Origin: an uncultured Gammaproteobacteria bacterium
GTDB taxonomy: Bacteria; Patescibacteriota; Patescibacteriia; Magasanikbacterales; GWA2-37-8
DNA length: 64,000 nucleotides
Assembly (NCBI GenBank): GCA_964634875.1
Contig: CAZWKA010000004.1
Location: 15,640-79,639, forward strand
Direction: 5' to 3'
The position numbers were made by a program, and so were the translations under genes. Under the pieces are notes generated by a model that made no database searches, was not told where the DNA came from, and saw only the letters and a list, made by a program, of their open reading frames with translations. Every line of letters starts with the position of its first letter. Within the stretch, counting starts at the first letter, position 1. Below are positions 6,213-56,926 of this stretch, piece by piece.

Positions 6213-7592
<1,380 letters not shown>

Positions 7593-24323: not shown

Positions 24324-24992
24324 TTATTTTTTGGAAGCAAAGGCGTGTTTACCGCTCCGACGGGAAAAATGCCAATATACTACCGCGCTGAGCAAGGCTG
24401 AAAAAAAGCACCAGACGGAAATAGCATTTTCCTTATACTGATACAGTGTAAATAAAAGCGACCCTAAAAGGACGATACCAAATACCTGAACTGTTTTTTT
24501 ACTCGACACTGCCCCCGATCCAACAACCACAAGCACATAGGCTGCCCACAGCAATTCAACATAGGGCGTCACAATGGAATACTGGATGCATTTGTTGAGA
24601 ATAAAAGCGGTTGGCGGATAAAGAAAAATTCGATAGAGTAAAAAGCTTCCCACACCGATACCCGCTAAACTAACGACCATAAGAATCTTTTGCCGGAGCA
24701 CGTTGTTTTCTAACAGTAAAATTGCAATGGGTAAAAATATTGGCCAGACACAAAGGGCAAAAATGGAATAAACAACAGCAAAAATATGCTGCGCCGGCAG
24801 AGCCCAACCAAACGAAAGCCAGACAAAGCCTTCGATAATTTGCTGCAAACCGAAAAGTAACGGCACGGCGGCAAACGGAATTTCATGGGGTGATTTTGCT
24901 TTTTTGAGTGTAGCCACCCCAATAGTGCTGAGAGCGACACCAGCGGCGAAACTGGCAACAGGTGAAAAACACATAGCATTATATATGACCAC
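24324..24992 (-). CDS. Hypothetical 6-TM membrane protein.
   Basis: Hydrophobic throughout. Its stop is 2 nt from the start of the downstream membrane protein gene, suggesting an operon. Confidence 0.35.
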   Translation of the reverse strand: MVIYNAMCFSPVASFAAGVALSTIGVATLKKAKSPHEIPFAAVPLLFGLQQIIEGFVWLSFGWALPAQHIFAVVYSIFALCVWPIFLPIAILLLENNVLRQKILMVVSLAGIGVGSFLLYRIFLYPPTAFILNKCIQYSIVTPYVELLWAAYVLVVVGSGAVSSKKTVQVFGIVLLGSLLFTLYQYKENAISVWCFFSALLSAVVYWHFSRRSGKHAFASKK

Positions 24993-25853: not shown

Positions 25854-27293
25854 CTACTTCTGCTTCTTGCCCTTCTTGAAGTGGTTGCCGCGCCCGCCTT
25901 CGTTCGGGATCTGCGCCTTCTGCGCCGCCCCATTGGTCTTGGCCTGCTGCGTCTTGTCCTGCGCCCTCTGGATCACACCAGCGAGCATGGCGAGGACCTC
26001 GGCCTGGAGCTCGGGGCTATCGGCGCGCACGAGGTCCGTGCGATCCGCGTCGTCCGCGAGGTACTTGTCCTCGCAGCGGGAGGCCACAACGTAGATGATG
26101 GCGCTGCCCAGGCGCTGCGGGTACGCCTCGTCGCTGGTCTTGAGGCCGACGAGCGAGGTCAGCTGGCCCTGGGCGGCCTCGTGGAAGAGCCGCTCGCGGG
26201 AGTGGCTGGGCTCGCCCTTGGCGTCCATGGTGTAGACGCGCATGACCTTGTGCGTCATGCGCTCGACCTTGGGGTCGTTCGAGGACGTGCCGATGACGAG
26301 CGCCAGCGCGCGTCGGACATGGTTCGTGAGGTTCTTCTTGGCCTCGGCGAACTCGCCGATCCGGCGCTCGTCCTCGGGCGAGAGCGGTGTCTTCTCCTTC
26401 TTCGTGGTGGCCACGGTGGTGGCCGGAGCCGGGTAGTTGTCCCACACCCAGCTGAACGCGGCGTCGTCCCGCATCAGGTCGTAGACCCGCTGCTTGGTGG
26501 ACCCGCTGGCGAACATCTCGGGCGGGCTGACCTGGAAGAACTTGGTCATGGCGATGTTGACGCCGCCGTTGATGAGGTCGAGGATCCGACCCCGGTGGAC
26601 GGCGAGGGCCTGGCGGCGGCCGGTGTCCTGCTCGCCCGTGAGCTCGAGCTCGATGCTCATGTCCTTGACGACATTGAGCAGGTGGAAACGGATCGCAGCG
26701 AGGGTCATGCAGTCCTCGTCCTCGCCGATCGCCTGGAAGGTCCAGAGGGGCAGGCACTGGATGCCCACGTTGTGGATCTTCAGGTTGCGGACCCGGATAT
26801 CCAGCAACCGCGCGAGGCGGAGGCGCTCGACCTCGGCCTGCTGATCCTTCTGGCGCTGCTCGGCTTCGGCCTTCTCGGCGGCGGCCTGGAGGTCGCGGGC
26901 GGCGACGCTCTTGAGCTTGGTGCTGGCGCCCTTGGCCGCGATGTGGTGACCCTTGACCTGGATCTCGAGCTGCTGGAGCTGCGCGGAGAGCTGCTGGTGC
27001 TCCTTCACGTAACCCTGGAACTCCTCCAGGATCTCGCTGGGGATCACACCCCCGTCCTTCTCAATCTGGGTGATGGCCTCGTCGGCCGGGACGATGAGCT
27101 CGTCGAGCTCCTTGACCTGCACGCGCAGCTGATTGATCTGATCGGACAGCTTGTCACCCGCGCTCTGGCAGCCAAGCTGGATGCGGAGCAAGAAGTCGCG
27201 GGGCGACGAGATGACCTTCCCACCATCCGACTGCCCGGTGGGGGCGTCGGCGTGGATGGCGGCGGAACCGGACAGTGCGGTGGACTGCGACAT
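25854..27293 (-). CDS. High-GC (about 65-67%) foreign-composition gene encoding a 479-aa protein with a roughly 150-aa N-terminal coiled coil and a basic C-terminal tail. Function unknown.
   Basis: Strong GC3 bias in this frame only; the overlapping ORFs on the opposite strand translate to L/G/A/D/R low-complexity junk. The start is set at MSQSTALSG (ATG 27293), which is preceded by a strong RBS AAGGAGAGG, absent from native genes. The C-terminus reads ...NEGGRGNHFKKGKKQK. Candidate capsid-like or scaffold-containing structural protein (inference). Confidence 0.5.
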   Translation of the reverse strand: MSQSTALSGSAAIHADAPTGQSDGGKVISSPRDFLLRIQLGCQSAGDKLSDQINQLRVQVKELDELIVPADEAITQIEKDGGVIPSEILEEFQGYVKEHQQLSAQLQQLEIQVKGHHIAAKGASTKLKSVAARDLQAAAEKAEAEQRQKDQQAEVERLRLARLLDIRVRNLKIHNVGIQCLPLWTFQAIGEDEDCMTLAAIRFHLLNVVKDMSIELELTGEQDTGRRQALAVHRGRILDLINGGVNIAMTKFFQVSPPEMFASGSTKQRVYDLMRDDAAFSWVWDNYPAPATTVATTKKEKTPLSPEDERRIGEFAEAKKNLTNHVRRALALVIGTSSNDPKVERMTHKVMRVYTMDAKGEPSHSRERLFHEAAQGQLTSLVGLKTSDEAYPQRLGSAIIYVVASRCEDKYLADDADRTDLVRADSPELQAEVLAMLAGVIQRAQDKTQQAKTNGAAQKAQIPNEGGRGNHFKKGKKQK

Positions 27294-27347
27294 GAGCCTC
27301 TCCTTGGACAATGGGACTCTTGGATCTAGGGCACTTCGCCTTTTGAT

Positions 27348-27401
27348 CCTGAACCCCCCAAAGCGTTGCACAAAACTTCTGCACTGCTGCGGGGGGTTCA
27401 A
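27348..27401. repeat. Inverted repeat gaacccccc ... ggggggttc (9-bp arms, about 36-nt spacer) in the AT-rich divergent intergenic region of the GC-rich island.
   Basis: gaacccccc at 27348-27356 and ggggggttc at 27393-27401. Confidence 0.4.
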
Positions 27402-27714: not shown

Positions 27715-27930
27715 ATGTCTTTGAAGCCGGAAATGGTGGACACCGGAATGGGCGGCCTTCGGGTTGACCCGCAAGCCCTCCGCCGACACGAGGCCGAGCA
27801 AGCGGCGAACCAGGTCGCTAGCGGCAAGCTCCTCAAGCACCGCCCCAGCCGAACCGTCCTCTTCACGCTCGCACTCCTCGTTCTGCCTATCGTGGTCACC
27901 ACGCTGATCGCGATCCTGGGTCGTCGCTAG
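27715..27930 (+). CDS. Small high-GC tail-anchored membrane protein (71 aa).
   Basis: Soluble N-terminus and a single C-terminal TM helix LFTLALLVLPIVVTTLIAILGRR. Same GC-rich codon usage as the neighbouring foreign gene. Confidence 0.35.
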   Translation: MSLKPEMVDTGMGGLRVDPQALRRHEAEQAANQVASGKLLKHRPSRTVLFTLALLVLPIVVTTLIAILGRR

Positions 27931-30278: not shown

Positions 30279-30350
30279 TCCCGGGTAGCGCAGCGGTAGC
30301 GCAGTTGGCTGTTAACCAATTGGTCGTCGGTTCGAATCCGACCCCGGGAG
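30279..30350 (+). tRNA. tRNA-Asn (anticodon GTT).
   Basis: Cloverleaf folded by hand: acceptor tcccggg/cccggga, D-arm gcgc-agcggta-gcgc, anticodon stem gttgg/ccaat with loop ctGTTaa, T-arm gtcgg-ttcgaat-ccgac, discriminator G. Confidence 0.8.
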
Positions 30351-30495
30351 CGATCAAAAATAATGGCTAGAATTAGCCATTATTTTACTTTTTACTTAAT
30401 TAAGTAAAAAGTAATGACTTGACAAGCGAAGACAAATCGGTTGAGAAAACAGCGGCATTAGAGCAGTATTGCGTTGCGTTTAATTTTAAAATTCT

Positions 30496-31665: not shown

Positions 31666-32706
31666 ATGTTTCTAAAATTACCCACAGAAGAAAGGTCCGA
31701 AAAAATTGACTTCCTACGAGGAAGCGCAGTCTTTTTCATGCTTGCCACTCATATTAATGTGGTTTTTGTAAAAGAATATACTTATATCTTAGATAGATTA
31801 ACATGGTGGGGAGCAACCGTAAGTTTTAGTGTTTTCTTATTTTGCTTTGCTTATATCTATGGCTTAAAATTATCTGACACTAAAAAATTAAGCAGAGAAA
31901 AACAAGTTAAAAGAATTTTTCTTTTGCTTTTTATTTATTATATAACAACTTTTTTCAGCCATTTTTTTCTTTTTAACAGCATCTCAATCGACGAATTACA
32001 GTCTATTTTAACCTTTCAATATTTACCTCTCTTCACTGAATTCATTATTCCTTTTTTTCTTTATACTATTCTAATTTTAATTTTTTATCCAGTTTTAAAA
32101 AAAATGCTAAATCGACCAATACTATTTATTATAATTTCTCTTATTATCTACTTTTTGGGTGGGTGGCTTTATATGCTTGATGGAATGGGTAATTTTTTAA
32201 ATGTTGTAAAAACTTTAATGGTGGGTAATGGGCATATTCATAGCTATGGTGTCATATCTTACTTTCCCATCTTTGTTCTCGGATTCATTGCTGGTGGAAC
32301 ACAAAAAAATAGCGAGGGCAACTCGTCAACTCTATCAATGTTTATACTATGTTCGATTTTATTTGTTTTTTTAAAAATTTCAGGACTTTCCGAGTGGTAT
32401 AGATTCCCGCCGTCTGTCCTATTTTTACTCTATGGAGTTATTTATAGTTTTGGAGTAATATTACTATACAAATATATCAAAAGAGCAAGCATCCTAGATA
32501 AATATTTTATATTTTTAGGCAAAAGAGCCTTGTTTATCTTTTTGATTAATGTGCTCCTGATTTTAGGTTTATCTAGTTTTTTAAATCATGAAAAATTTGC
32601 CGTAAAAACAGTCTTGTTATTGCAATTTTTAATTATTACAAGCATATCTCTGGTAACCTATTTTTATGAAAAAATGGCTATTATTTGGCAGAGAGAAAAA
32701 ATCTAG
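31666..32706 (+). CDS. Acyltransferase family 3 (OpgC/OatA-like) membrane O-acyltransferase.
   Basis: N-terminal KIDFLRGSAVFFMLATH matches the conserved IDxLRG...H start of Acyl_transf_3, with about 10 TM helices. Confidence 0.5.
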   Translation: MFLKLPTEERSEKIDFLRGSAVFFMLATHINVVFVKEYTYILDRLTWWGATVSFSVFLFCFAYIYGLKLSDTKKLSREKQVKRIFLLLFIYYITTFFSHFFLFNSISIDELQSILTFQYLPLFTEFIIPFFLYTILILIFYPVLKKMLNRPILFIIISLIIYFLGGWLYMLDGMGNFLNVVKTLMVGNGHIHSYGVISYFPIFVLGFIAGGTQKNSEGNSSTLSMFILCSILFVFLKISGLSEWYRFPPSVLFLLYGVIYSFGVILLYKYIKRASILDKYFIFLGKRALFIFLINVLLILGLSSFLNHEKFAVKTVLLLQFLIITSISLVTYFYEKMAIIWQREKI

Positions 32707-34228
32707 AAAATTTTGGTATACTTTAGTTGGACTAGTGCTACTGTTATTTTGTAGTTTTTTTATAATACTTTTTTTAAGTATTAAACCTCAAAATCTAAAC
32801 GATCTTTTTTTTAACAATTGGACGTGTAATACTTTTGAGAATGACAAAAATGAGCTGGTTGAGTCAGTAAAGCCCGATAAAAAGTGGATTTTAATTGGGG
32901 ATGAATTTACAAAAGAAGAAAAACTAGTAATTTTAAAAGTGAAGCTTGCTGATAAAGCAACAAGATATTTTGATCGACCGGATTCTGTAAAAATTTTTTA
33001 TGAGCTGGTAAATACAGAAAATGAACAACTGACAGATAGTGTGGTGTCCGGTTATTTCGCTACGAGCTCGCTGATACATGTAGGCGAACTTTTGTTTGAG
33101 GAAAAAATAAATATAAGCAGTTTGCCTGTCGGCGAATACAGGGTCAATCTAAAAGCACAGTTTGACTGTGGTGAGTCATTGGCCTTTTTTGAAAATATTT
33201 TTATTTCCTATCCATTATACGTCGTATGGAGTTTTGATTGGGAGGGGTATGCTGTAAAAAATGAATATTTGGAAAAAATAGATGCACTTACTGAAAAACA
33301 TGATAATTTTCCTCTGAGCCACGTCATTAATCCAAGGTTATTTATTACCAAAACTATTCCGCAAGCACAGCGAGATCGTATGAAAGATTGGTTGGTAGAA
33401 AGAAAAAATAATAAAGATCATAGTTTGGGTTTGCATTTGCATATGTTTTATGAAAATCTTGAGGCTGCAAAGATACCTATTCCAAAAAAAGATATACTTG
33501 ATCTTGAGGCAGATTTTTATGCTTCGGTCACGACTTCACCTACGAGCTCGCCAGTAAGCTCATCGAGCACTACGACTTTATTTGATGCGAGTAAATTACA
33601 AAAGAAGCAACTGTATGATCTTGTATACTGGGGTACTAAGTATGATGACGGTTATGATATTTTGGTAACAAATTTTGGTTATCGTGAGCTAGATAAAATA
33701 GTAAAATGGTCAAAAAAACTTTTTACAGAGCTTGGTTTCGGAACACCAACCACATATCGATCCGGTGGTTGGTTTGCAGATTCAACTACCTTAGAGGTTT
33801 TACAAGACAATGGCTTTACTGTAGATACTTCTGGTAGGACAAAATATAATTTTGGTACAAATAAAATTCCTGGATTTTGGGATTTATCAATTACTTCACA
33901 GCCCTATCAGCCCAATGTGAAGGACCAAAATTCAGCTATGGCACCAAATATGAAGATATGGGAATTTCCAAATAATGGAGGTGATTCGTGGTGGTATACC
34001 GCAGAACAAATGATAGAGCGGTTTAATGCAAATTGGGGAGTAGTTGGTAAACCGCTTGAAAAAAGAACCGTTGTAGTTTTTTTAAGTCACCCAGACTGGT
34101 TTCATGTAGATGAGCCGAAAGTTGACAAGCTCTTTAATTATACCGATGCTTATTTGAATTCAAGAGACAATGGCCCAGTATCATATCAAAATTTAGAAAA
34201 ATTATATACAATATGGACTCAATTTTAA
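32666..34228 (+). CDS. Membrane-anchored extracytoplasmic protein of unknown function, possibly a divergent polysaccharide deacetylase (CE4)-like domain.
   Basis: N-terminal TM and a Ser/Thr-rich linker (TSPTSSPVSSSSTTT). Weak CE4-like elements VWSFDWEG and LHLHMF. Overlaps the upstream and downstream genes, suggesting an operon. Confidence 0.3.
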   Translation: MKKWLLFGREKKSRKFWYTLVGLVLLLFCSFFIILFLSIKPQNLNDLFFNNWTCNTFENDKNELVESVKPDKKWILIGDEFTKEEKLVILKVKLADKATRYFDRPDSVKIFYELVNTENEQLTDSVVSGYFATSSLIHVGELLFEEKINISSLPVGEYRVNLKAQFDCGESLAFFENIFISYPLYVVWSFDWEGYAVKNEYLEKIDALTEKHDNFPLSHVINPRLFITKTIPQAQRDRMKDWLVERKNNKDHSLGLHLHMFYENLEAAKIPIPKKDILDLEADFYASVTTSPTSSPVSSSSTTTLFDASKLQKKQLYDLVYWGTKYDDGYDILVTNFGYRELDKIVKWSKKLFTELGFGTPTTYRSGGWFADSTTLEVLQDNGFTVDTSGRTKYNFGTNKIPGFWDLSITSQPYQPNVKDQNSAMAPNMKIWEFPNNGGDSWWYTAEQMIERFNANWGVVGKPLEKRTVVVFLSHPDWFHVDEPKVDKLFNYTDAYLNSRDNGPVSYQNLEKLYTIWTQF

Positions 34229-36144
34229 GTTTTGGAATACTAAATTTTAACATATTAATTTCGATAATTTTTATTGCTATTGTAATTTTAGCTGTCTTTA
34301 ATTTTGCTATTTTTGTTCTTAAAAAAGAAAAATATTATCGCCTTTTGGTTATATTAAATACGGCTAGTATTGCTTTAATTTTATTTTTTTCTTTCGTTAC
34401 TTTATTTTCAAGGCCTTTTGCTCGGTTGGAAACGGTGACCGAAGGCGGAAATTTGATAGAGGCGCACCAACCGATTGAAATATCTTTTACGGTTCCTATT
34501 AACCCGGAGAATACATCTTTTCGGATGTCCCCTGAAGTCGATGGTGATTGGGTTTTCCAAAATGCCTCGCCATTTTCTTCTCGAAAATACAAAGATAGAG
34601 CAATTTTTATTCCCAAAGAATCTTTTTATCCTGAGACTAAAATTGTAGTATATATTGTGGGATTGAAACGATTGTTTCCTGGAGGTAAAAGACATGAGCA
34701 ATCTACTGAGTTTTTTTCTCCCAAACTACCTATTATTACAGAGGTATACCCTAAAAACGGTCAAGAAAATGTAAGCACAAAGGATCCATTTGAAATAACT
34801 TTTGACGCGCCGAGCGGAGAATTCATAAACTGGGTGTACGAGATCAACCCACCAGTTGATTTTACTGTCGACAAATCGGAAAATAAGCATAAACTAGTAT
34901 TTTCTAAACCTCTGCTACAAAATCATGAATATTCCTTATCAATCTCCAGATCTGGACGTTCGTATCGAGTTGAAGATTTTTCTGATCTTGAAAAGGGCGA
35001 TGTAGAATTAATGGATAAAGTTACTTTTAAGACTACCGCTTCGCCATTAGTTAAATTTTTCGATCAGCAAGGGAATGGTGTGCGAGCCGAAAGCCCTATC
35101 AAAATAGTTTTTTCTGAAGAAATGAACCAGACAAGTGTGGCAGAAAAGTTTACCCTTAGTCCAGCAACGACAGGTAAAATAAATTGGGAAGATGGAAAAA
35201 CTTTTATTTTTGTACCAGATGTTGAATTTAAAAAAGGTGTTGATTATACAATTAAATTTTTAAGTGGGATGGAAAATAAATATGGAGGCAACACCGACCA
35301 CGATATAGAGCTGCATTTCAGCCCGGTGGGAGTAGTTAAAATTTTATCAATATCCCCCAAAAATGCTTCTCAGGGGCAATCTGTCGATTTATCAAGAGTG
35401 GTAATTGAATTTGACCAAGAAGTAGATCATACTTCAGCGCAAAATTCTTTTTCTATATCTCCAAATATTCCAGGGTCTTTTTCTTGGGAAGGTAATAAAA
35501 TGATATTCTCTCTTAGTTCTAGTTTGGAAAATTCAACAAAATATAGTATAAAATTAAAAAAGGGTATCAAAACTGTTTATGGATTAGACTCGGCCGAAGA
35601 CTATAATTATTCATTTACTACAAAAAATAAGGTTTTTTCTTTGGACATACCTTTGTATGACCAAAGCGAAACTTTTACCTGCAATATTGCTGCGACCAGA
35701 ATGGTACTTGCTTACAAAGGAATCGCTCTTTCAGAAAATTCTATTAAAGTAACAATTGGTGAAGGTGTAGATCCGAATGTAAACTGGGTTGAGGGCTACG
35801 GCGTGCATTGGGGGCCAATATATAATTTTATAAGTAAATATCGCACTGTATCTTTAAAAAATAATTGGAATATTGAAGATCTTGTACAAGAAGTACAGCG
35901 AGGTAACCCCGTAATAATTTGGGGGCACAATCAGTTTAGTTCGACAGGCACATTTGAACTTGATTCAGGGGCTACTGGTTATCACGGAATGCATTCGGTA
36001 GTGGTAAAAGGTTTTGTTGGAAACGTAGAAAATCCAACTTCTATAATTGTAAATGACCCTTGGCTCGGATCAAGAACTATTAGTCTTTCAAGCTTTAAGA
36101 GCCTCTGGGCTTATATTGACAATACAGCTCTCGTAGTTTATTAA
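34213..36144 (+). CDS. Surface protein with four Big_5 (SbsA-like Ig) domains and a C-terminal C39-like papain-fold peptidase domain (Peptidase_C39_2/YvpB-like).
   Basis: Two N-terminal TM helices. Four roughly 100-aa repeats of the pattern I..F...(M/V)...S......SP...G...W.......F.P........Y.I.(L/F). The C-terminus has QSETFTCNIAATRMVLAYKG (catalytic Cys context of C39-like) and GYHGMHSVVVKG (His). Confidence 0.55.
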   Translation: MDSILSFGILNFNILISIIFIAIVILAVFNFAIFVLKKEKYYRLLVILNTASIALILFFSFVTLFSRPFARLETVTEGGNLIEAHQPIEISFTVPINPENTSFRMSPEVDGDWVFQNASPFSSRKYKDRAIFIPKESFYPETKIVVYIVGLKRLFPGGKRHEQSTEFFSPKLPIITEVYPKNGQENVSTKDPFEITFDAPSGEFINWVYEINPPVDFTVDKSENKHKLVFSKPLLQNHEYSLSISRSGRSYRVEDFSDLEKGDVELMDKVTFKTTASPLVKFFDQQGNGVRAESPIKIVFSEEMNQTSVAEKFTLSPATTGKINWEDGKTFIFVPDVEFKKGVDYTIKFLSGMENKYGGNTDHDIELHFSPVGVVKILSISPKNASQGQSVDLSRVVIEFDQEVDHTSAQNSFSISPNIPGSFSWEGNKMIFSLSSSLENSTKYSIKLKKGIKTVYGLDSAEDYNYSFTTKNKVFSLDIPLYDQSETFTCNIAATRMVLAYKGIALSENSIKVTIGEGVDPNVNWVEGYGVHWGPIYNFISKYRTVSLKNNWNIEDLVQEVQRGNPVIIWGHNQFSSTGTFELDSGATGYHGMHSVVVKGFVGNVENPTSIIVNDPWLGSRTISLSSFKSLWAYIDNTALVVY

Positions 36145-42038: not shown

Positions 42039-42878
42039 TCAATGCAAAATCGCTAGACTAAACAATGCAAAACCAACCGCGGCATTATACGCCGGAAAAT
42101 ACCAATACACTCGCTGTAGTAGCGCTGGTCGACCAACAAGAAAAAGTGGTACCAACGGGTACGCCAAACAAATGGCGCCCAACCAATAAACGTGCAAAAT
42201 TGCCACAAAAATCACCAGGCTAGTTAACCAGAGCAGCGAACAAATATATAGCGATGCCTTTTGTCCAAAAAAAATTGCGCTCGTGGTGAGCCCGGCCTTT
42301 TGGTCGCTTGCAATATCCGGAATTGCAGAAAAAAGATGCATAGCACTCGTCCAAAAAAATACCGCAATTACTATTGGCCAGGATGGCAAATGACCGCTCG
42401 TTTGAAGATAACCAATAATACCCGGTAAGCCGTACAAAATATTGGACGCAAAATCGAGCACGGGCCGAGCCTTGAATCGAAGGGGTGGTGCGCTGTAAAA
42501 ATACGATAGCACTAAAAAAATACCGAACAACGAGGCGAGCATTGCTGAATGACTGAGGGTTAAAATAACAATGCACAACCCAGCAATAACGCACAGGCTT
42601 AGCCGTAGTTTTTTGCGCTCAGTCGTTTGCAACAAGTTCTCTTCATTCCCTTTTTTAGTGTTAAATTGGTCCGTATCGGCATCATAATAGTCATTGATAC
42701 CATACAAAAAAATATTTGCCGGGACTAAAAAGAAAAAAAGATATACCCAAAAATATAACTCTGTAAACGCTTGCACATTTGGTGCGCCCGCAGCAAAGCC
42801 CACGACATACGTGCCACCCAGATACAACCAGAAACGGGGGCGTGATGTTCGATACAGAAAAATTAAAAACTCTTTCAT
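42039..42878 (-). CDS. UbiA-superfamily prenyltransferase, the last gene of the carotenoid operon. Candidate lycopene elongase or carotenoid prenyltransferase.
   Basis: About 8 TM helices and the Asp-rich motif NDYYDADTD (NDxxDxxxD). There is a 4-nt start/stop overlap with the upstream polyprenyl synthase gene. Confidence 0.65.
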   Translation of the reverse strand: MKEFLIFLYRTSRPRFWLYLGGTYVVGFAAGAPNVQAFTELYFWVYLFFFLVPANIFLYGINDYYDADTDQFNTKKGNEENLLQTTERKKLRLSLCVIAGLCIVILTLSHSAMLASLFGIFLVLSYFYSAPPLRFKARPVLDFASNILYGLPGIIGYLQTSGHLPSWPIVIAVFFWTSAMHLFSAIPDIASDQKAGLTTSAIFFGQKASLYICSLLWLTSLVIFVAILHVYWLGAICLAYPLVPLFLVGRPALLQRVYWYFPAYNAAVGFALFSLAILH

Positions 42879-43960
42879 GCCGATCGATTAAGATTGTACT
42901 CGAGAAGTTCGTACAGCATCTTTTTCTGACCCGCCGCCCCATCGTAAGCAGCAACTACTTTTTTTACCGCCGTAATTCGATATGACAAGATTTTGGCTAT
43001 CTTTTTTTGTATGCCGTACTTCATAATCAACTCACGCACCAGCGCCACTTCATTTTGTGTCATTGAAGTATTGCCAAAAATACCTTCCAACTTTTTTCGC
43101 TCAGCAGCGCTCGACTGTTTAAATAAAAAGTAATAGTAGAGTGTTTTTTTGCCTTCACGAATATCTGACCCTACGGGTTTTCCGATCTTTTGTTCGTCCC
43201 CAAACATGCCAAGCTCGTCATCTTTAATCTGGAAAATAATACCAAGGTGTTCACCAAATTTTTCTAGCAACCGCACACTACCGGACGGCTGACCCGCCGC
43301 CAAACCACCCAGCATGAGCGGGAGTGAAAATGTGTAGCGGGCTGTTTTATAACAATACAACCGGAGTATATCTGCCTGCGAAGGCATAGTACTCACTGCC
43401 CCAGAGTACACATCCTGCATTTGGGCAAAACCAACTTTTATAATTTCTTGTGAAAAAATACCAACGATCTCTTGAAGTGCTGGTGTTTTCGTTTGCGGAA
43501 GCGATGATAAAAGATTAAAACTTAAAAAAATAGCCACATCGCCAACGCATATACCGAGCGACTCACCGACATGCCCAGCATTATGACCTGCATGCTTTCT
43601 GGTAAGTATTTCGTACTGTTTATAGAGGGTCGACTCACCGCGCCGAAGCTCATCTAAATCCATAATATCATCGTGAACTATAAGCGCTGTGTGGACAATT
43701 TCTATTGCCGCTGCCAGGCGAAGACATGCTTCGTCAGGTCGTTTTCCGGCAAGTTGATACGCCAAAAACACCATACCACCCCGCACCATCTTGCCTTTTA
43801 TAATCGTAGCATAGAGCCGCCGCAAAGCGTCTTTTGACCAACGGTTTACCGGACGATATATTTTTATCTGTTCGTCAAAAAAATCTTTTAAAAACGGCCG
43901 GAGTTTATTGCTCGCCTCGGCATAGAAAGAATTCATAGTGCGTTCAAGAATAGCTGCCAT
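42875..43960 (-). CDS. crtE: Polyprenyl diphosphate synthase (GGPP synthase, CrtE/IdsA-like).
   Basis: First Asp-rich motif LIVHDDIMDLDELRRG and second motif FQIKDDELGMFGD. Confidence 0.8.
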   Translation of the reverse strand: MAAILERTMNSFYAEASNKLRPFLKDFFDEQIKIYRPVNRWSKDALRRLYATIIKGKMVRGGMVFLAYQLAGKRPDEACLRLAAAIEIVHTALIVHDDIMDLDELRRGESTLYKQYEILTRKHAGHNAGHVGESLGICVGDVAIFLSFNLLSSLPQTKTPALQEIVGIFSQEIIKVGFAQMQDVYSGAVSTMPSQADILRLYCYKTARYTFSLPLMLGGLAAGQPSGSVRLLEKFGEHLGIIFQIKDDELGMFGDEQKIGKPVGSDIREGKKTLYYYFLFKQSSAAERKKLEGIFGNTSMTQNEVALVRELIMKYGIQKKIAKILSYRITAVKKVVAAYDGAAGQKKMLYELLEYNLNRSA

Positions 43961-44763
43961 ATAATTTTTGTCTTGCTCGGTTTTACTTTCTTTCTAAAAA
44001 TAATAAACGGGTCGCGTTCAATGACATCAGCCGTAAAGCGGTACATATCAGCAGCGGTTTTAATCGGGAGCAAAAACCGTTTAGGGATAAAAGAAAAACC
44101 CGCTTCCCCTGCTGCTTGCCACGCCCGATAACGCTTCAGTTCCTGAGCAATAAGCGCTGCAAAGTCTGGTGCACGGCATTGTGCTGACTTTTCAGTTAGG
44201 TGTTCAAAACCAAACGGACGGAGTACTTCAAACGGTATATATTGTCTACCCAGCTGAATATCTTCGGCAATATCGCGAATAAAATTAATATATTGAAAGC
44301 CTCTACCGAGAAGCTGGGCGGTGCCATACGACTCAGCGGGCAAATTCATGAGCCGCGCCATTACCAGACCAATTACTTCCGCTGAACCATAGATATAATC
44401 ACCAAGTTCAGTGAACGTAGCATATGTTTTCTTCTCCGTGTCGCTTGTCATTGCCTGCAAAAATGAGTCTATCCATTCCCGGGGAATCGACCGGCGGTTC
44501 ACAAGATCAACAAAAGAATCGATAATTATGTTGCCAGATACCGTTCCTGCCAGGGCTGCAGCATACTGCTTTTTAAACAAAACAAAATCGCTGAGCTTAG
44601 CCGGCACGCTGTCAACCAAATCATCAGCCACCCGAACAAAGGCATAGAAAATAAAAACATCTTCACGAACAGCGCGAGGGAAAAACAGGCTGCTCGTAAA
44701 AAAGGTTTTACTCCCCTTCTTAAATGTTTGATAAATTTCCTGATCAACCATATTTTTTTTCAA
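43933..44763 (-). CDS. crtB: Phytoene synthase (squalene/phytoene synthase family).
   Basis: YAFVRVADDLVD (DxxxD substrate-Mg motif) and a second DD motif FIRDIAEDIQLGRQYIP. Confidence 0.8.
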   Translation of the reverse strand: MKKNMVDQEIYQTFKKGSKTFFTSSLFFPRAVREDVFIFYAFVRVADDLVDSVPAKLSDFVLFKKQYAAALAGTVSGNIIIDSFVDLVNRRSIPREWIDSFLQAMTSDTEKKTYATFTELGDYIYGSAEVIGLVMARLMNLPAESYGTAQLLGRGFQYINFIRDIAEDIQLGRQYIPFEVLRPFGFEHLTEKSAQCRAPDFAALIAQELKRYRAWQAAGEAGFSFIPKRFLLPIKTAADMYRFTADVIERDPFIIFRKKVKPSKTKIIWQLFLNAL

Positions 44764-46216
44764 TAGCTTCAGCTACCAGCCCGGAAGCGATGAGGCACAT
44801 TGGCATACCGATACCAGGGTGCGTGTACTGCCCCGTATAATAGAGGTTAGTGACTTTTTTACTCTGGTGACGTGGACGGAAAACAGCTGTTTGCATGAGC
44901 GTGTGGCTGAGGCCAAGCGCCGTACCCTTGTAGGCATTAAACATGCCGGCAAAATCACGCTGACTGAAAATCTTTTGAACAACAGCGTCGTGTAGATTTT
45001 GGCCCAAAAGGGATTCCAAATGAACCAATACTTTTTCAGTATATTTTTCTCTTGTTTCATCCGTGTCTTCAAGGCCAGCCGCCACGGGAACTAAAATAAC
45101 CAGCGCTTCCCCTCCGGGCGGCACGATTGTCGGGTCAGTTTTTGATGCGCACGAAACATAATATGACGGATGTTCCGGCCATTCGGGGTGTTCAAAAATA
45201 GCGTCAAAATGTCGCACCCAATCGTTGTCAAAAAATAACGTGTGATGTTCTAAGCCGGCGATTTTTCTGTCATAGCCGAGGTACAGCATAAAAGCGGATG
45301 GCGCGAGCGTTCGCCTCTCCCAATATCTTTTAGAATACGTCTGATCGCCCTTAGCCAAAAGGGTGCTTTCGGTATGGTGGTAGTCAGCTCCGGAAATAAC
45401 AATATCCGCCTCAATCACTTTTCCGTTCACTACTACTCCCTTGGCTTGTGTATCACTAACAACAATTTTTTCAACCGGGCTGTTAAATTCGAACCGTGCT
45501 CCATAGGAACGAGCCAAATCTTCCAGGCCTCGTACCACAGCACCTATGCCACCGGTTGGATACCACACCCCCAAATTGAAATCAATATGAGACATGAGCG
45601 AATAAATCGCCGGCGTATTTTTGGGAGCTCCGCCTAAAAACACCATACTATATTCCAAAATTTTGCGCAGCTTATCACTCTTAAAGTAACGGCGCGTATA
45701 CGCATCAAGCGATTCAAATACATGGAGTTTCCTACCTTCCACAATCATGCGGCGATTAAAAAAATCCATGAGCGATGTATACTCTTTGTACAAAAAGTCT
45801 TTCATGGATACGTCGTATTGATACTTTGACTGCGCCAAGTAGCGTGTCAGTGCGGCAGCAGCGCCAGGTTCCAGAGCTTCAAAAACAGCCATGTTTTTTT
45901 CAAGATCGGCTGAAAGGTCCACAAAGTCGTTTTTGCCATGGAAAATCCGGTACGCCGGGTCAAGACGCTGCAGTTTAAAAAAATCAGTTGGCTTTTTACC
46001 GAACTCTGCAAAAAATTTTTCAAAAACATCAGGCATCAAATACCATGACGGACCCATGTCGAACGTAAACCCCTTTTCGCGATAGACGCTGGCTCGCCCG
46101 CCGGACTGATCGTTTTTTTCAAGCACCAGTACGTCAAACCCCTTGTGAGCCAAGAGGGCTGCAGCAGACAAACCGCCAAAACCAGCGCCAATGATAACAA
46201 CTTTCTTCTGCGACAT
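44744..46216 (-). CDS. crtI: Phytoene desaturase (CrtI family FAD-dependent).
   Basis: N-terminal KKVVIIGAGFGGLSAAALLAHKGFDVLVLEKNDQSGGRA dinucleotide-binding motif, about 490 aa. Confidence 0.8.
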   Translation of the reverse strand: MSQKKVVIIGAGFGGLSAAALLAHKGFDVLVLEKNDQSGGRASVYREKGFTFDMGPSWYLMPDVFEKFFAEFGKKPTDFFKLQRLDPAYRIFHGKNDFVDLSADLEKNMAVFEALEPGAAAALTRYLAQSKYQYDVSMKDFLYKEYTSLMDFFNRRMIVEGRKLHVFESLDAYTRRYFKSDKLRKILEYSMVFLGGAPKNTPAIYSLMSHIDFNLGVWYPTGGIGAVVRGLEDLARSYGARFEFNSPVEKIVVSDTQAKGVVVNGKVIEADIVISGADYHHTESTLLAKGDQTYSKRYWERRTLAPSAFMLYLGYDRKIAGLEHHTLFFDNDWVRHFDAIFEHPEWPEHPSYYVSCASKTDPTIVPPGGEALVILVPVAAGLEDTDETREKYTEKVLVHLESLLGQNLHDAVVQKIFSQRDFAGMFNAYKGTALGLSHTLMQTAVFRPRHQSKKVTNLYYTGQYTHPGIGMPMCLIASGLVAEAIEKKYG

Positions 46217-46490
46217 ACCTAAAAAATTTAAACTTTTATTGATAGTACTAGCTCTGCTTAACCGGACACTTTAACACTAAAAATTACAGCACTAGAGCGC
46301 GTGGATACGCCACGGACACAGTATACTTCTTAGCGCAATTATACACAACTGCCAGCTCGCTTTCATGTGAAATAAAATTATCCACCGCCTAATTGCTGCT
46401 TTCAAAAATTTCTGATATAGTGTATAAAATACAATAAGTAGTGATAAAGACTATTCTTTGGTACTACATATAGAAAATGGTTTCCAAAAT

Positions 46491-46700
46491 ATGACGACTA
46501 TTTGTCTTAAAGAATACCGTTGCCAGGAATGCAAAAAGTTATTATTTAAAGGCGCCCTCGTCGAAAGCGTGGTTGAAGTTCGCTGTAAGCAGTGCCATAG
46601 CATGAATACTGTAAAAAGCAGCGCGCTTAACGAGCTTCTTTGTGCAGTAGTACCCTGTCCCCACCGCATCACAGTTGAAACCGCAGTAGCTAAAAAATAA
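46491..46700 (+). CDS. Small Com-like zinc-ribbon protein (Mu Com family-like).
   Basis: MTTICLKEYRCQECKKLLFKGALVESVVEVRCKQCHSMNTV contains CxxC-X18-CxxC with KLLFK, the hallmark of Mu Com translational regulator-like proteins. The start is set at MTTIC. Confidence 0.45.
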   Translation: MTTICLKEYRCQECKKLLFKGALVESVVEVRCKQCHSMNTVKSSALNELLCAVVPCPHRITVETAVAKK

Positions 46701-46772
46701 TTTTAATACTTTTCATTATTTTAACCTGAAGCTCTAGAAGCTCCTACCCAAGGGAGTTTTTTTATTTTTACT

Positions 46773-55822: not shown

Positions 55823-56926
55823 TTGACAAAAAGCTTAAACCACTTCATAGTTATGAAGGCTATGACAAAAAAAATTTCTCCATCAAAAAATAAAAAAACA
55901 CCTTCGTTACAAAACGGACTGCGCTATGTGCATCCTGAAAAATTAACTATTACCCGGGTCAAAGTCGGTAAAAATTTTACTTATTACGAAACTGACGGGA
56001 ACCAAATAACCGATGCAGACGTACTTAAGCGCATTGAAGACCTCCACATTCCTCCTGCCTACCACGAAGTCCGTATTTGTCCGTTTAGCAACGGCCACCT
56101 GCAAGCTACCGGTAAAGATGAGCGGCAACGAACGCAATATCTGTACCACCCGGAATGGCGCACACTGCGTGATACCAATAAATTCCATCGCCTGCTTAAA
56201 TTTGGCCAGGTGCTTCCGAGCGTTCGCCGCACTGTCCGGGAACAACTAAAGCTGCGAGGCAGCCCCCGTAAAAAAATTTTGGCGACAGTAGTTTCGATCT
56301 TGGACAAAACTTACATTCGTATCGGCAACGAAGCCTATGCTAAGGCCAATAAGTCCTATGGACTCACCACTCTTCACAACCACCATGCCCGTGTTACTGG
56401 TGACGACATAGAATTTAGTTTTCGTGGCAAACGTGGTATTGCGCACACCATCAAACTTCACGACCACCGACTTGCCAAAATTATCCATAATTGCCAAGAG
56501 CTACCCGGCTATGAACTTTTTGAATACAAAGATAGTCGGCACAACATTCATTCAATTGAATCAACCGACGTTAATGATTACCTCAAAAGCATTTGCCGAG
56601 ACGACTTTACTGCCAAAGATTTCCGCACCTGGCACGCCACAGTTTTGGCCTTAAAATACTTACTCGATCTTTCTCCTGGACAAACAACAACGGAAATCAA
56701 AAAAAATATTATCGAAACAATCAAACAAGTTGCCGCGCAACTTGGCAACACGCCGACAATTTGTAAAAAATCATACATTCACCCCGGTGTCTTAACCAGT
56801 TATAGCAACAATCGTTTGGCGGCGCTCTCCAAAGCAATAAACCACAGTAAATTTGCGCGCCTGAGTCTTACGGCCGAAGAAAAAATGACATTGATATTTT
56901 TGGAACAACACGATAAAAACATCTAA
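55823..56926 (+). CDS. Type IB DNA topoisomerase (poxvirus/eukaryotic-type TopIB, bacterial form).
   Basis: Blocks ILDKTYIRIGNEAYAKANKSYGLTTL, RGKRGI..T, TWHATV and the C-terminal active-site Tyr context CKKSYIHP resemble the bacterial TopIB pentad (R, K, R, H, Y) as I remember it. Confidence 0.65.
   Translation: MTKSLNHFIVMKAMTKKISPSKNKKTPSLQNGLRYVHPEKLTITRVKVGKNFTYYETDGNQITDADVLKRIEDLHIPPAYHEVRICPFSNGHLQATGKDERQRTQYLYHPEWRTLRDTNKFHRLLKFGQVLPSVRRTVREQLKLRGSPRKKILATVVSILDKTYIRIGNEAYAKANKSYGLTTLHNHHARVTGDDIEFSFRGKRGIAHTIKLHDHRLAKIIHNCQELPGYELFEYKDSRHNIHSIESTDVNDYLKSICRDDFTAKDFRTWHATVLALKYLLDLSPGQTTTEIKKNIIETIKQVAAQLGNTPTICKKSYIHPGVLTSYSNNRLAALSKAINHSKFARLSLTAEEKMTLIFLEQHDKNI

Follow-up and report, generated by a model that had tools for sequence, protein, structure and literature searches.

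A four-gene operon of a Magasanikbacteria-like bacterium and its probable product, an acyclic C50 carotenoid of the bacterioruberin series

Results

The carotenoid gene cluster

This study concerns a putative carotenoid operon in a stretch of bacterial DNA of 64,000 nucleotides (nt), which is called the window in the following and to which all coordinates refer unless another locus is named. The cluster spans positions 42039-46216 and consists of four intact minus-strand open reading frames (ORFs), found in a longest-ORF listing exactly where an earlier prediction from the sequence (here the original prediction) had placed them (Table 1). The four proteins fall into the Pfam families Amino_oxidase/NAD_binding_8, SQS_PSY, polyprenyl_synt and UbiA; the E-values lie between 1e-24 and 1e-51. 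According to Pfam and NCBIfam, the identities originally proposed for the four genes were right at family level, and all motifs quoted in their support were recovered in the proteins (GAGFGG, YAFVRVADDLVD, DDIMDLD, KDDELGMFGD and NDYYDADTD).

Table 1. Genes of the cluster and the region upstream of it, given as positions within the 64,000-nt window (aa, amino acids)
Feature	Position	Strand	Description
crtI/crtD ('CrtID')	44744..46216	-	Flavin adenine dinucleotide (FAD)-dependent carotenoid desaturase, 490 aa
crtB-like, squalene/phytoene synthase family	43933..44751	-	272 aa from ATG 44751; longest ORF from TTG 44763, 276 aa
trans-prenyl diphosphate synthase, predicted geranylgeranyl diphosphate (GGPP) synthase	42875..43936	-	353 aa from ATG 43936; longest ORF from 43960, 361 aa
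lyeJ-type UbiA prenyltransferase, predicted lycopene elongase/1,2-hydratase	42039..42878	-	279 aa
Intergenic region upstream of crtI, AT-rich, 241 nt	46217..46457	-	Sigma-70-like hexamer pairs at 46405-46377 and 46366-46338

Neighbouring genes overlap at every junction, as had been claimed before, but the overlap sizes of 20, 28 and 4 nt given at that time stem from the longest ORFs. The homologues in the related loci L081-L085 are 490, 272, 353 and 279-283 aa long and overlap by 8 (11 in L085), 4 and 4 nt, and the window proteins read from ATG 44751 and ATG 43936 match their homologues over the entire length (272/272 and 353/353 residues). Because the protein lengths of the relatives and these alignments favour the shorter starts, the two ATG codons are likely to be the real starts of crtB and of the prenyl synthase gene, and the real overlaps probably measure 8, 4 and 4 nt, with the junction sequences ATGGTTGA (crtI/crtB), ATGA (crtB/prenyl synthase) and ATGA (prenyl synthase/lyeJ).

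The 241-nt region upstream of crtI is the probable, faintly marked promoter region of the operon. A promoter scan gave two matches of 10/12 to the consensus on the minus strand; the 13 sigma-70-like sites upstream of crtI were not above chance (shuffled expectation 9.4 +/- 2.8), and the scan for promoters and terminators as a whole returned consensus-level matches only, in numbers no higher than chance predicts.

Assignment of the UbiA protein to the LyeJ family

The UbiA protein encoded at the end of the cluster (Pfam UbiA, 1.6e-24) reached 301.6 bits on the NCBIfam model NF009516 (PRK12875), which has a curated cut-off of 205, and the next models, NF010119 (110 vs 248) and NF009608 (110 vs 217), remained below theirs. 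Both NF009516 and NF009608 are named 'prenyltransferase' only and were therefore calibrated with proteins of known gene context. A Natrinema protein whose gene lies between a crtI/D homologue and cruF, the canonical haloarchaeal arrangement, scored 466 bits on NF009516, and an Arthrobacter protein encoded at the end of a crtE-crtB-crtI-cyclase-domain cluster, the CrtEb arrangement (locus L087), scored 469 bits on NF009608 and 134 bits on NF009516. Given this calibration, NF009516 can be regarded as the LyeJ type and NF009608 as the CrtEb type. Judged by its sequence, the window protein is a member of the LyeJ family (haloarchaeal lycopene elongase/1,2-hydratase), and it is predicted to add a C5 unit at C-2 of lycopene and to hydrate the 1,2 bond.

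The alignment of the UbiA protein with homologues from bacteria of the candidate phyla radiation (CPR), Armatimonadota, Bathyarchaeia and Thorarchaeota and with three haloarchaeal LyeJ proteins contains 50 invariant columns, among them N62-D63-D66-D70, YSxxPxRFK, D142, N146 and D188-D192, so that both Asp-rich motifs (NDxxDxxxD and DxxxD) are included. The phylogenetic placement that had been proposed along with the original prediction was carried out by neighbour joining (NJ) with Arthrobacter CrtEb as root: the window protein fell inside the LyeJ-type ingroup and not with CrtEb. Bootstrap values were 100/100 for the group of the window protein with those of L081, L083, L085 and L001, 93/100 for the window and L081 alone, and 76/100 for the non-halophile clade. 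In annotations by JGI, several of the homologues are called 'lycopene elongase/hydratase (dihydrobisanhydrobacterioruberin-forming)'. The idea that the terminal UbiA gene encodes a lycopene elongase, for C45 or C50 carotenoids, has therefore stood up to the model scores, the tree and the gene context of sister loci, in which cruF and a CrtB fusion are found.

A CrtEb identity, and with it membership in a cluster for cyclic C50 carotenoids of the decaprenoxanthin or sarcinaxanthin kind, was rejected on the NF009608 score and the Arthrobacter calibration; genes for CrtYe/Yf are likewise absent from the cluster. Identity as a quinone, haem or chlorophyll prenyltransferase was also rejected on model scores.

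The LyeJ-type family as a whole is moderately large: a search of 1.84 billion representative sequences gave 257 clusters at 50% identity (E<=1e-30). The representative search also yielded UbiA matches of 558-630 aa in which the match lies in the C-terminal half. A paralogue with about 31% identity to the window protein is encoded on haloarchaeal plasmids (L088 4968-5837, from a Halomontanus rarus plasmid, and hits H4 and H5), where it adjoins a methyltransferase gene outside any crt cluster.

The desaturase, the SQS_PSY enzyme and the prenyl diphosphate synthase

The desaturase (Pfam Amino_oxidase, 2.6e-42) scored 707.2 bits on NCBIfam NF058655, the model for the bifunctional phytoene desaturase/3,4-desaturase CrtID (cut-off 640), as a full-length match (1-478/478), and carries the FAD-binding GxGxxG motif as GAGFGG at residues 10-15. 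The Natrinema orthologue, whose gene adjoins lyeJ, reached 766 bits on the same model, while Arthrobacter CrtI stayed below the cut-off (453 vs 640). Among solved structures, phytoene dehydrogenase 4dgk and gamma-carotene desaturase 4rep come closest. By analogy with the haloarchaeal enzymes, the protein is predicted to perform both the desaturation of phytoene to lycopene and the 3,4-desaturation of the elongated intermediates. Yatsunami et al. (2024, PMC11946383) showed that C0507 of Haloarcula japonica, which is encoded beside lyeJ (c0506) and cruF (c0505), acts as CrtI as well as CrtD, and the two activities have been demonstrated only for C0507 and D1086 of this species (PMC11946383). Deletion of HVO_2528, annotated as crtI, rendered Haloferax volcanii colourless (PMC7714787). 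Given the bifunctionality of C0507 and the colourless deletion mutant, a single desaturase gene would be enough for the whole route.

The CrtB-like protein matched Pfam SQS_PSY at 2.1e-51 (175.6 bits), and its Asp-rich motifs ADDLVD and RDIAEDI are kept across the relatives; the homologues in L081, L083 and L085 align over their full length of 272 aa. Its subfamily occurs together with crtID in non-halophile clusters, whose members score 250-330 bits, compared with about 118 bits for haloarchaeal and about 80 bits for flavobacterial CrtB. The protein is a member of the SQS_PSY family, and the name 'phytoene synthase' is given by operon context only, since no equivalog cut-off was reached.

The prenyl diphosphate synthase (Pfam polyprenyl_synt, 3.5e-51, 174.3 bits) has as its best solved relatives the farnesyl diphosphate (FPP) synthase 8f8f and the GGPP synthase 3lk5 of Corynebacterium glutamicum. 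Its first motif, DDIMD, lacks a two-residue insertion, and its second motif, DDELGMFGD, is typical of actinobacterial enzymes; both are kept in all CPR homologues. For this enzyme class an established rule relates chain length to the residues before the first Asp motif. In the window protein these are the small residues Leu at position -4 and Ala at position -5, the latter being Trp in 8f8f and Cys in 3lk5. The pattern fits a product of C20 or longer, without amounting to proof, and the name 'GGPP synthase' is owed to the context.

Conservation of the operon and absence of cruF

One genome per species was scanned for proteins related to the desaturase, of which at least 590 were counted. The nearest belong to CPR bacteria (Magasanikbacteria 70%, Saccharibacteria 58-59% and Doudnabacteria 55% identity), followed by Armatimonadota, Thermoplasmatota, Thor- and Bathyarchaeia and spirochaetes, and then by haloarchaea (46-50%) and Bacteroidota (44-48%). 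The order crtI-crtB-prenyl synthase-lyeJ recurs in at least seven independent loci, namely L001 (Magasanikbacteria), L003 and L008 (Saccharibacteria) and L081-L085, and is therefore not a product of chance. The nearest relative, L081/L082, shares 85.5%, 77.6%, 72.2% and 66.2% identity with the window over the four proteins, the first value being that of the desaturase. In Armatimonadota, Bathyarchaeia and others the arrangement is crtI-crtB-lyeJ, with no prenyl synthase gene. In Candidatus Doudnabacteria, the SQS_PSY (CrtB) and LyeJ-type UbiA domains are encoded as one fused protein by a single 571-aa ORF (L007 11421-13136).

Three of the related loci carry a five-gene version, cruF-crtI-crtB-synthase-lyeJ, with cruF (Caroten_synth) in the lead, directly upstream of crtI (L001 8597-9364; L083 5923-6522, with L084; L085 334-1125). 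A profile built from 30 cruF sequences finds these genes at E 2e-60 to 5e-73. Neither the window, nor its extension at the right end (Logan contig L086, 11 kb, of which about 9 kb are new), nor L081/L082 yielded cruF by jackhmmer, tblastn or profile hidden Markov model (HMM) searches on six-frame segments (best E about 1), and no remnant of it was detectable by tblastn or profile HMM in the window or in L081/L082. For the window host, these searches covered the 64 kb plus the extension, about 73 kb of a genome of about 1 Mb. In these 73 kb the complete bacterioruberin cluster of crtI/D, lyeJ and cruF is not present, the C50 carotenoid 2'',3''-hydratase CruF (PF04240) being the missing member. 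The place that cruF would occupy (46217-46772) is taken by the 241-nt spacer, an ORF for a Com-like zinc-ribbon protein (46458-46700, plus strand) and pyrD. No ORF with a lycopene-cyclase domain was found in or beside the cluster, whereas the Arthrobacter locus has cyclase genes as well as a CrtEb-family elongase. The search for tailoring enzymes of the crtY or cruF kind that the original prediction had suggested thus returned none in the window and, for cruF, in the L086 extension.

Host and genomic neighbourhood

Several observations point to a Magasanikbacteria-like host within the CPR (Patescibacteria). The named matches among the best 120 of 8000 relatives of the methionyl-tRNA synthetase (MetRS) encoded in the window (66-73% identity) all belong to Candidatus Magasanikbacteria or to a 'Patescibacteria group bacterium', and some relatives of MetRS are found on contigs of 1.0-1.3 Mb. 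The contig L001, which belongs to a metagenome-assembled genome (MAG) of Magasanikbacteria, encodes a DUF6938 protein and an NrdG that are 72% and 63% identical to those of the window. The premise of a reduced genome is supported indirectly by these relatives and shared proteins. Other genes of the window encode an F-type ATP synthase, TatD, an RsmI-like methylase, UvrD, PyrD, GreA, the anaerobic ribonucleotide reductase NrdD/NrdG, two P-type ATPases and many secreted or unclassified proteins, and the L086 extension carries genes of a MacB-type ABC transporter. A bacterial type IB topoisomerase (Pfam Topoisom_I and Top1B_N_bact) is encoded at 55823-56926 (plus strand) of this CPR genome.

The cluster has a GC content of 44.8% (44.0% at third codon positions, GC3) compared with 43.8% for the window, in agreement with the native composition noted at the outset. 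It divergently adjoins nrdD-nrdG in both the window and L001, and a convergent ykuD gene lies downstream of it in the window and in L081 (62.7% identity). Given the native GC content and the nrdDG neighbour shared with the Magasanikbacteria MAG, the cluster looks inherited. Within the Magasanik-like clade the CrtI and LyeJ trees are congruent; overall, both mix bacteria and archaea. The simplest reading is vertical inheritance of the cluster in Magasanikbacteria-like bacteria, with cruF lost or relocated in the sub-lineage of the window.

Elsewhere in the window, a 515-aa ORF at 25854-27401 (minus strand; 65.7% GC, 91.7% GC3) has no Pfam family, a coiled-coil look and a Lys-rich C-terminus. 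Beside it lies a second, small ORF of high GC content (about 27716-27930, plus strand), whose product has a hydrophobic helix at the C-terminus, and AT-rich spacers flank both; together the two genes have the look of an island that is foreign or extreme in composition. A low-GC island at 31666-36144 (plus strand; 29-35% GC, GC3 about 27%) follows a tRNA-Asn gene (30279-30351) and encodes an Acyl_transf_3 protein, a 520-aa membrane protein and a protein with Big_5 and Peptidase_C39_2 domains. It may be a horizontally acquired surface-modification module beside a tRNA gene. A DUF6629 membrane protein is encoded 17 kb from the cluster (24324-24992, minus strand) and, in L085, two genes downstream of the carotenoid operon (6771-7466), so that a link is possible. 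A TspO_MBR gene lies at L081/L082 1-239, about 6.5 kb upstream of the carotenoid operon; TspO was absent among the window ORFs scanned for domains. TspO (CrtK) belongs to the carotenoid cluster of Rhodobacter.

Discussion

A predicted route to bisanhydrobacterioruberin

We consider it probable that in this Magasanikbacteria-like bacterium the four genes form a self-contained operon whose members are translated together, and that it serves to make an acyclic C50 carotenoid from the bacterioruberin series, namely bisanhydrobacterioruberin (BABR). In the route that we propose, the prenyl diphosphate synthase would convert isopentenyl and dimethylallyl diphosphate (IPP and DMAPP) into GGPP, two molecules of which would be joined by the CrtB-like enzyme to phytoene, and the CrtID desaturase would turn phytoene into lycopene. 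The LyeJ-type UbiA enzyme would then add a C5 unit from DMAPP at C-2 and hydrate the 1,2 bond, the same CrtID would introduce the 3,4 double bond, and the repetition of these two steps at the other end of the molecule would lead to BABR, a long, red, acyclic C50 pigment with two hydroxyls and 13 conjugated double bonds. Identities at family level, catalytic motifs, operon structure, conservation and synteny in relatives and the lack of cruF over about 73 kb are observations; the chain lengths, the product and its role in the cell we infer. An acyclic product is expected because a gene with a lycopene-cyclase domain is missing, and BABR rather than bacterioruberin is the predicted end product because the locus has no CruF, unless cruF lies elsewhere in the genome.

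By analogy with bacterioruberin in haloarchaea and Arthrobacter, the pigment is likely to serve as a membrane-spanning stiffener and antioxidant. For Arthrobacter, a contribution to membrane stiffening and cold adaptation has been described (PMC8709818), and the same role in Patescibacteria has been proposed by the authors of the Lake Baikal study (PMC9948471).

Several points weigh against this interpretation. We know of no biochemistry for members of these families outside the halophiles and the actinobacteria. The CrtB-like protein lies below every NCBIfam equivalog cut-off (HpnD 119.8 vs 278.6, HpnC 112 vs 250, CrtB 104.8 vs 500) and scores slightly higher on the HpnD and HpnC models than on those for CrtB, and the prenyl synthase likewise falls short of all of them (GGPP_syn 131.5 vs 500, FPPsyn 107 vs 275). 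NF009516 is not fully specific, as the plasmid-borne paralogue in L088 passes it with 231 bits; the model alone is for this reason no proof of function, and the operon context adds the rest. All trees were built by NJ only, and their deep nodes received 19-83/100. CrtI-type desaturases need O2 or quinone as electron acceptor, and the genes adjoining the cluster encode an oxygen-sensitive anaerobic ribonucleotide reductase. Finally, no genes of the mevalonate (MVA) or methylerythritol phosphate (MEP) pathway were found in the window or in the L086 extension, in which range the search for them, advised in the original prediction, was made. Pfam searches of 44 window ORFs, including nearly all of at least 150 aa, revealed no MVA/MEP, cyclase, Blh/Brp or rhodopsin genes. 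In the CPR, the MVA pathway is found mostly in Microgenomates and in only a few phyla on the side of the Parcubacteria, most of which lack it, and the MEP pathway is sparse (Hoshino and Gaucher, PMC6107057); most freshwater CPR classes have the isoprenoid steps from C10 to C20 only (Chiriac et al., PMC9166423).

Alternative explanations

The Magasanikbacteria sub-lineage represented by the window and L081/L082 may have dropped cruF and may make BABR as its final product from host-derived IPP and DMAPP that it cannot make itself, a proposal that we regard as possible yet rather doubtful. If it were true, the pigment would be among the few self-made membrane components of a lipid-auxotrophic CPR cell, and BABR would act as a 'rivet' across the bilayer, which would suit cells of very small size and high curvature. 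A full bacterioruberin pathway, in which cruF resides elsewhere in the genome and the end product is bacterioruberin with four hydroxyls, appears unlikely. The range searched is a small part of the roughly 1-Mb genome, related Magasanik-like loci retain cruF, and in a Saccharibacteria genome from Lake Baikal cruF lies far from lyeJ and crtD (PMC9948471). However, in the relatives that have cruF it heads the operon, and this very slot is empty in the window and in L081/L082, with no remnant left. In Haloarcula japonica, bacterioruberin arises when CruF hydrates both of the added units, and low expression of lyeJ/cruF leads to an accumulation of BABR (PMC11946383).

The UbiA protein might instead prenylate a non-carotenoid substrate, such as a precursor of quinones, haem, chlorophyll or lipids, in which case the operon would make only a C40 carotenoid, e.g. 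lycopene or 3,4-didehydrolycopene. Membership in the UbiA superfamily follows from the fold only, the closest solved structure is a generic prenyltransferase of Archaeoglobus (4tq3, 55 bits), and the haloarchaeal paralogue that passes NF009516 lies outside crt clusters. We nevertheless regard this explanation as very unlikely, given that the protein reached only 19-48 bits on the models for UbiA, MenA, MqnP, ChlG, homogentisate prenyltransferases and DGGGPS (cut-offs 212-555), that all relatives show the 4-nt overlap between its gene and the carotenoid genes, that L007 has a fusion of CrtB with a LyeJ-type domain, and that in sister loci the gene is accompanied by cruF.

A C30 (diapocarotenoid) pathway, with an FPP-making prenyl synthase and a dehydrosqualene synthase (CrtM-like) or HpnC/D-like SQS_PSY enzyme, would accord with the HpnD and HpnC scores named above as the best of the SQS_PSY protein, with CrtM and dehydrosqualene synthases among the solved structures matched by this protein, and with the FPP synthase as the best solved match of the prenyl synthase. 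It is considered highly unlikely, since the desaturase passes the CrtID cut-off in common with the C40 enzymes of haloarchaea and Flavobacterium and has no CrtN model among its best NCBIfam matches, the prenyl synthase lacks the aromatic residue that 8f8f has at position -5, and no HpnC/D/E trio is present.

An origin of the cluster outside the CPR genome, be it that the contig was mis-binned or is chimeric or that the cluster arrived very recently by horizontal transfer, could draw on the two compositional islands of the window and on the mixture of bacteria and archaea in the LyeJ and CrtID trees, but it is most improbable and was rejected on composition (GC and GC3 of the cluster equal those of the surrounding housekeeping genes), on synteny (Magasanikbacteria-type MetRS, ATP synthase genes and NrdDG on the same contig; nrdDG and ykuD neighbourhoods common to L001 and L081) and on the congruent CrtI and LyeJ trees with their 100/100 Magasanik-like clade.

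Significance

Lake Baikal Patescibacteria have already been reported to carry lyeJ, crtD and cruF, and the role of these genes has been discussed (Haro-Moreno et al. 2023, PMC9948471). The original prediction called pigment biosynthesis unexpected in a reduced genome; in Patescibacteria, carotenoid genes of this type have a precedent. A putative lyeJ has also been described in an Asgard archaeon (PMC12137139), and no literature match was obtained for Magasanikbacteria together with carotenoid. Already published are the enzyme families, which NCBIfam curates, the logic of the pathway and the occurrence of genes of this kind in Patescibacteria, and the two central families have been characterized in haloarchaea. 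What is added here is that CPR operons are self-contained, with crtB and a prenyl synthase of their own, that the operon has a conserved position in Magasanikbacteria-like genomes, and that one sub-lineage is without cruF.

On the prevailing view, CPR bacteria cannot produce membrane lipids themselves and rely on hosts. An intact, apparently vertically inherited operon with its own prenyl synthase suggests that some of them nevertheless make a membrane-spanning isoprenoid of their own. Questions that arise are where IPP and DMAPP come from, which electron acceptor serves a CrtI-type enzyme beside an anaerobic ribonucleotide reductase, and why CruF was lost in one sub-lineage. With its four genes, the operon would also be a compact means of obtaining a C50 carotenoid by heterologous expression. 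The known picture is thereby extended, not changed.

Comparison with known systems

Among other CPR bacteria, the operons in L001, L083/L084, L085, L081/L082 and L003/L008 agree with that of the window in gene order, protein lengths (490/272/353/279-283 aa), short overlaps and 54-86% identity, and flanking genes are shared as well (ykuD with L081, nrdDG with L001). Unlike L001, L083 and L085, the window and L081/L082 have no leading cruF. The report on Lake Baikal Patescibacteria describes neither crtB nor a prenyl synthase, and the genes are unclustered in 'Baikalibacteria' (PMC9948471).

The actinobacterial C50 clusters of the decaprenoxanthin type, crtE-crtB-crtI-crtYe-crtYf-crtEb (Corynebacterium glutamicum, PMC3598387; Arthrobacter L087), likewise unite a prenyl synthase, CrtB, CrtI and a terminal UbiA-family elongase in one operon, and the second motif DDxLGxFGD is shared with the GGPP synthase 3lk5 of C. 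glutamicum. They differ in that the window UbiA protein is not of the CrtEb family (110 bits on NF009608 with its cut-off of 217, against 469 for the Arthrobacter protein), in that the window lacks genes for CrtYe/Yf, and in that Arthrobacter CrtI misses the CrtID cut-off.

Haloarcula japonica has a close counterpart, the haloarchaeal cluster crtI/D (c0507)-lyeJ (c0506)-cruF (c0505) (Yang et al. 2015, cited by Yatsunami et al. 2024, PMC11946383), with equivalents in Natrinema and other haloarchaea (L031 and further loci). Both systems combine a CrtID desaturase (NF058655) and a LyeJ-type elongase (NF009516) above the respective cut-offs in one operon, and both are without a C50 cyclase, so that an acyclic C50 product is expected. 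In contrast to the haloarchaeal cluster, with which identities are about 39% (LyeJ) and 49% (CrtID), the window has crtB and its own prenyl diphosphate synthase gene between those for desaturase and elongase, its CrtB belongs to a different subfamily (haloarchaeal proteins score about 118 bits, those of the non-halophile clusters 250-330), and cruF is missing from the locus. Moreover, the window host is an ultra-small bacterium and no halophile.

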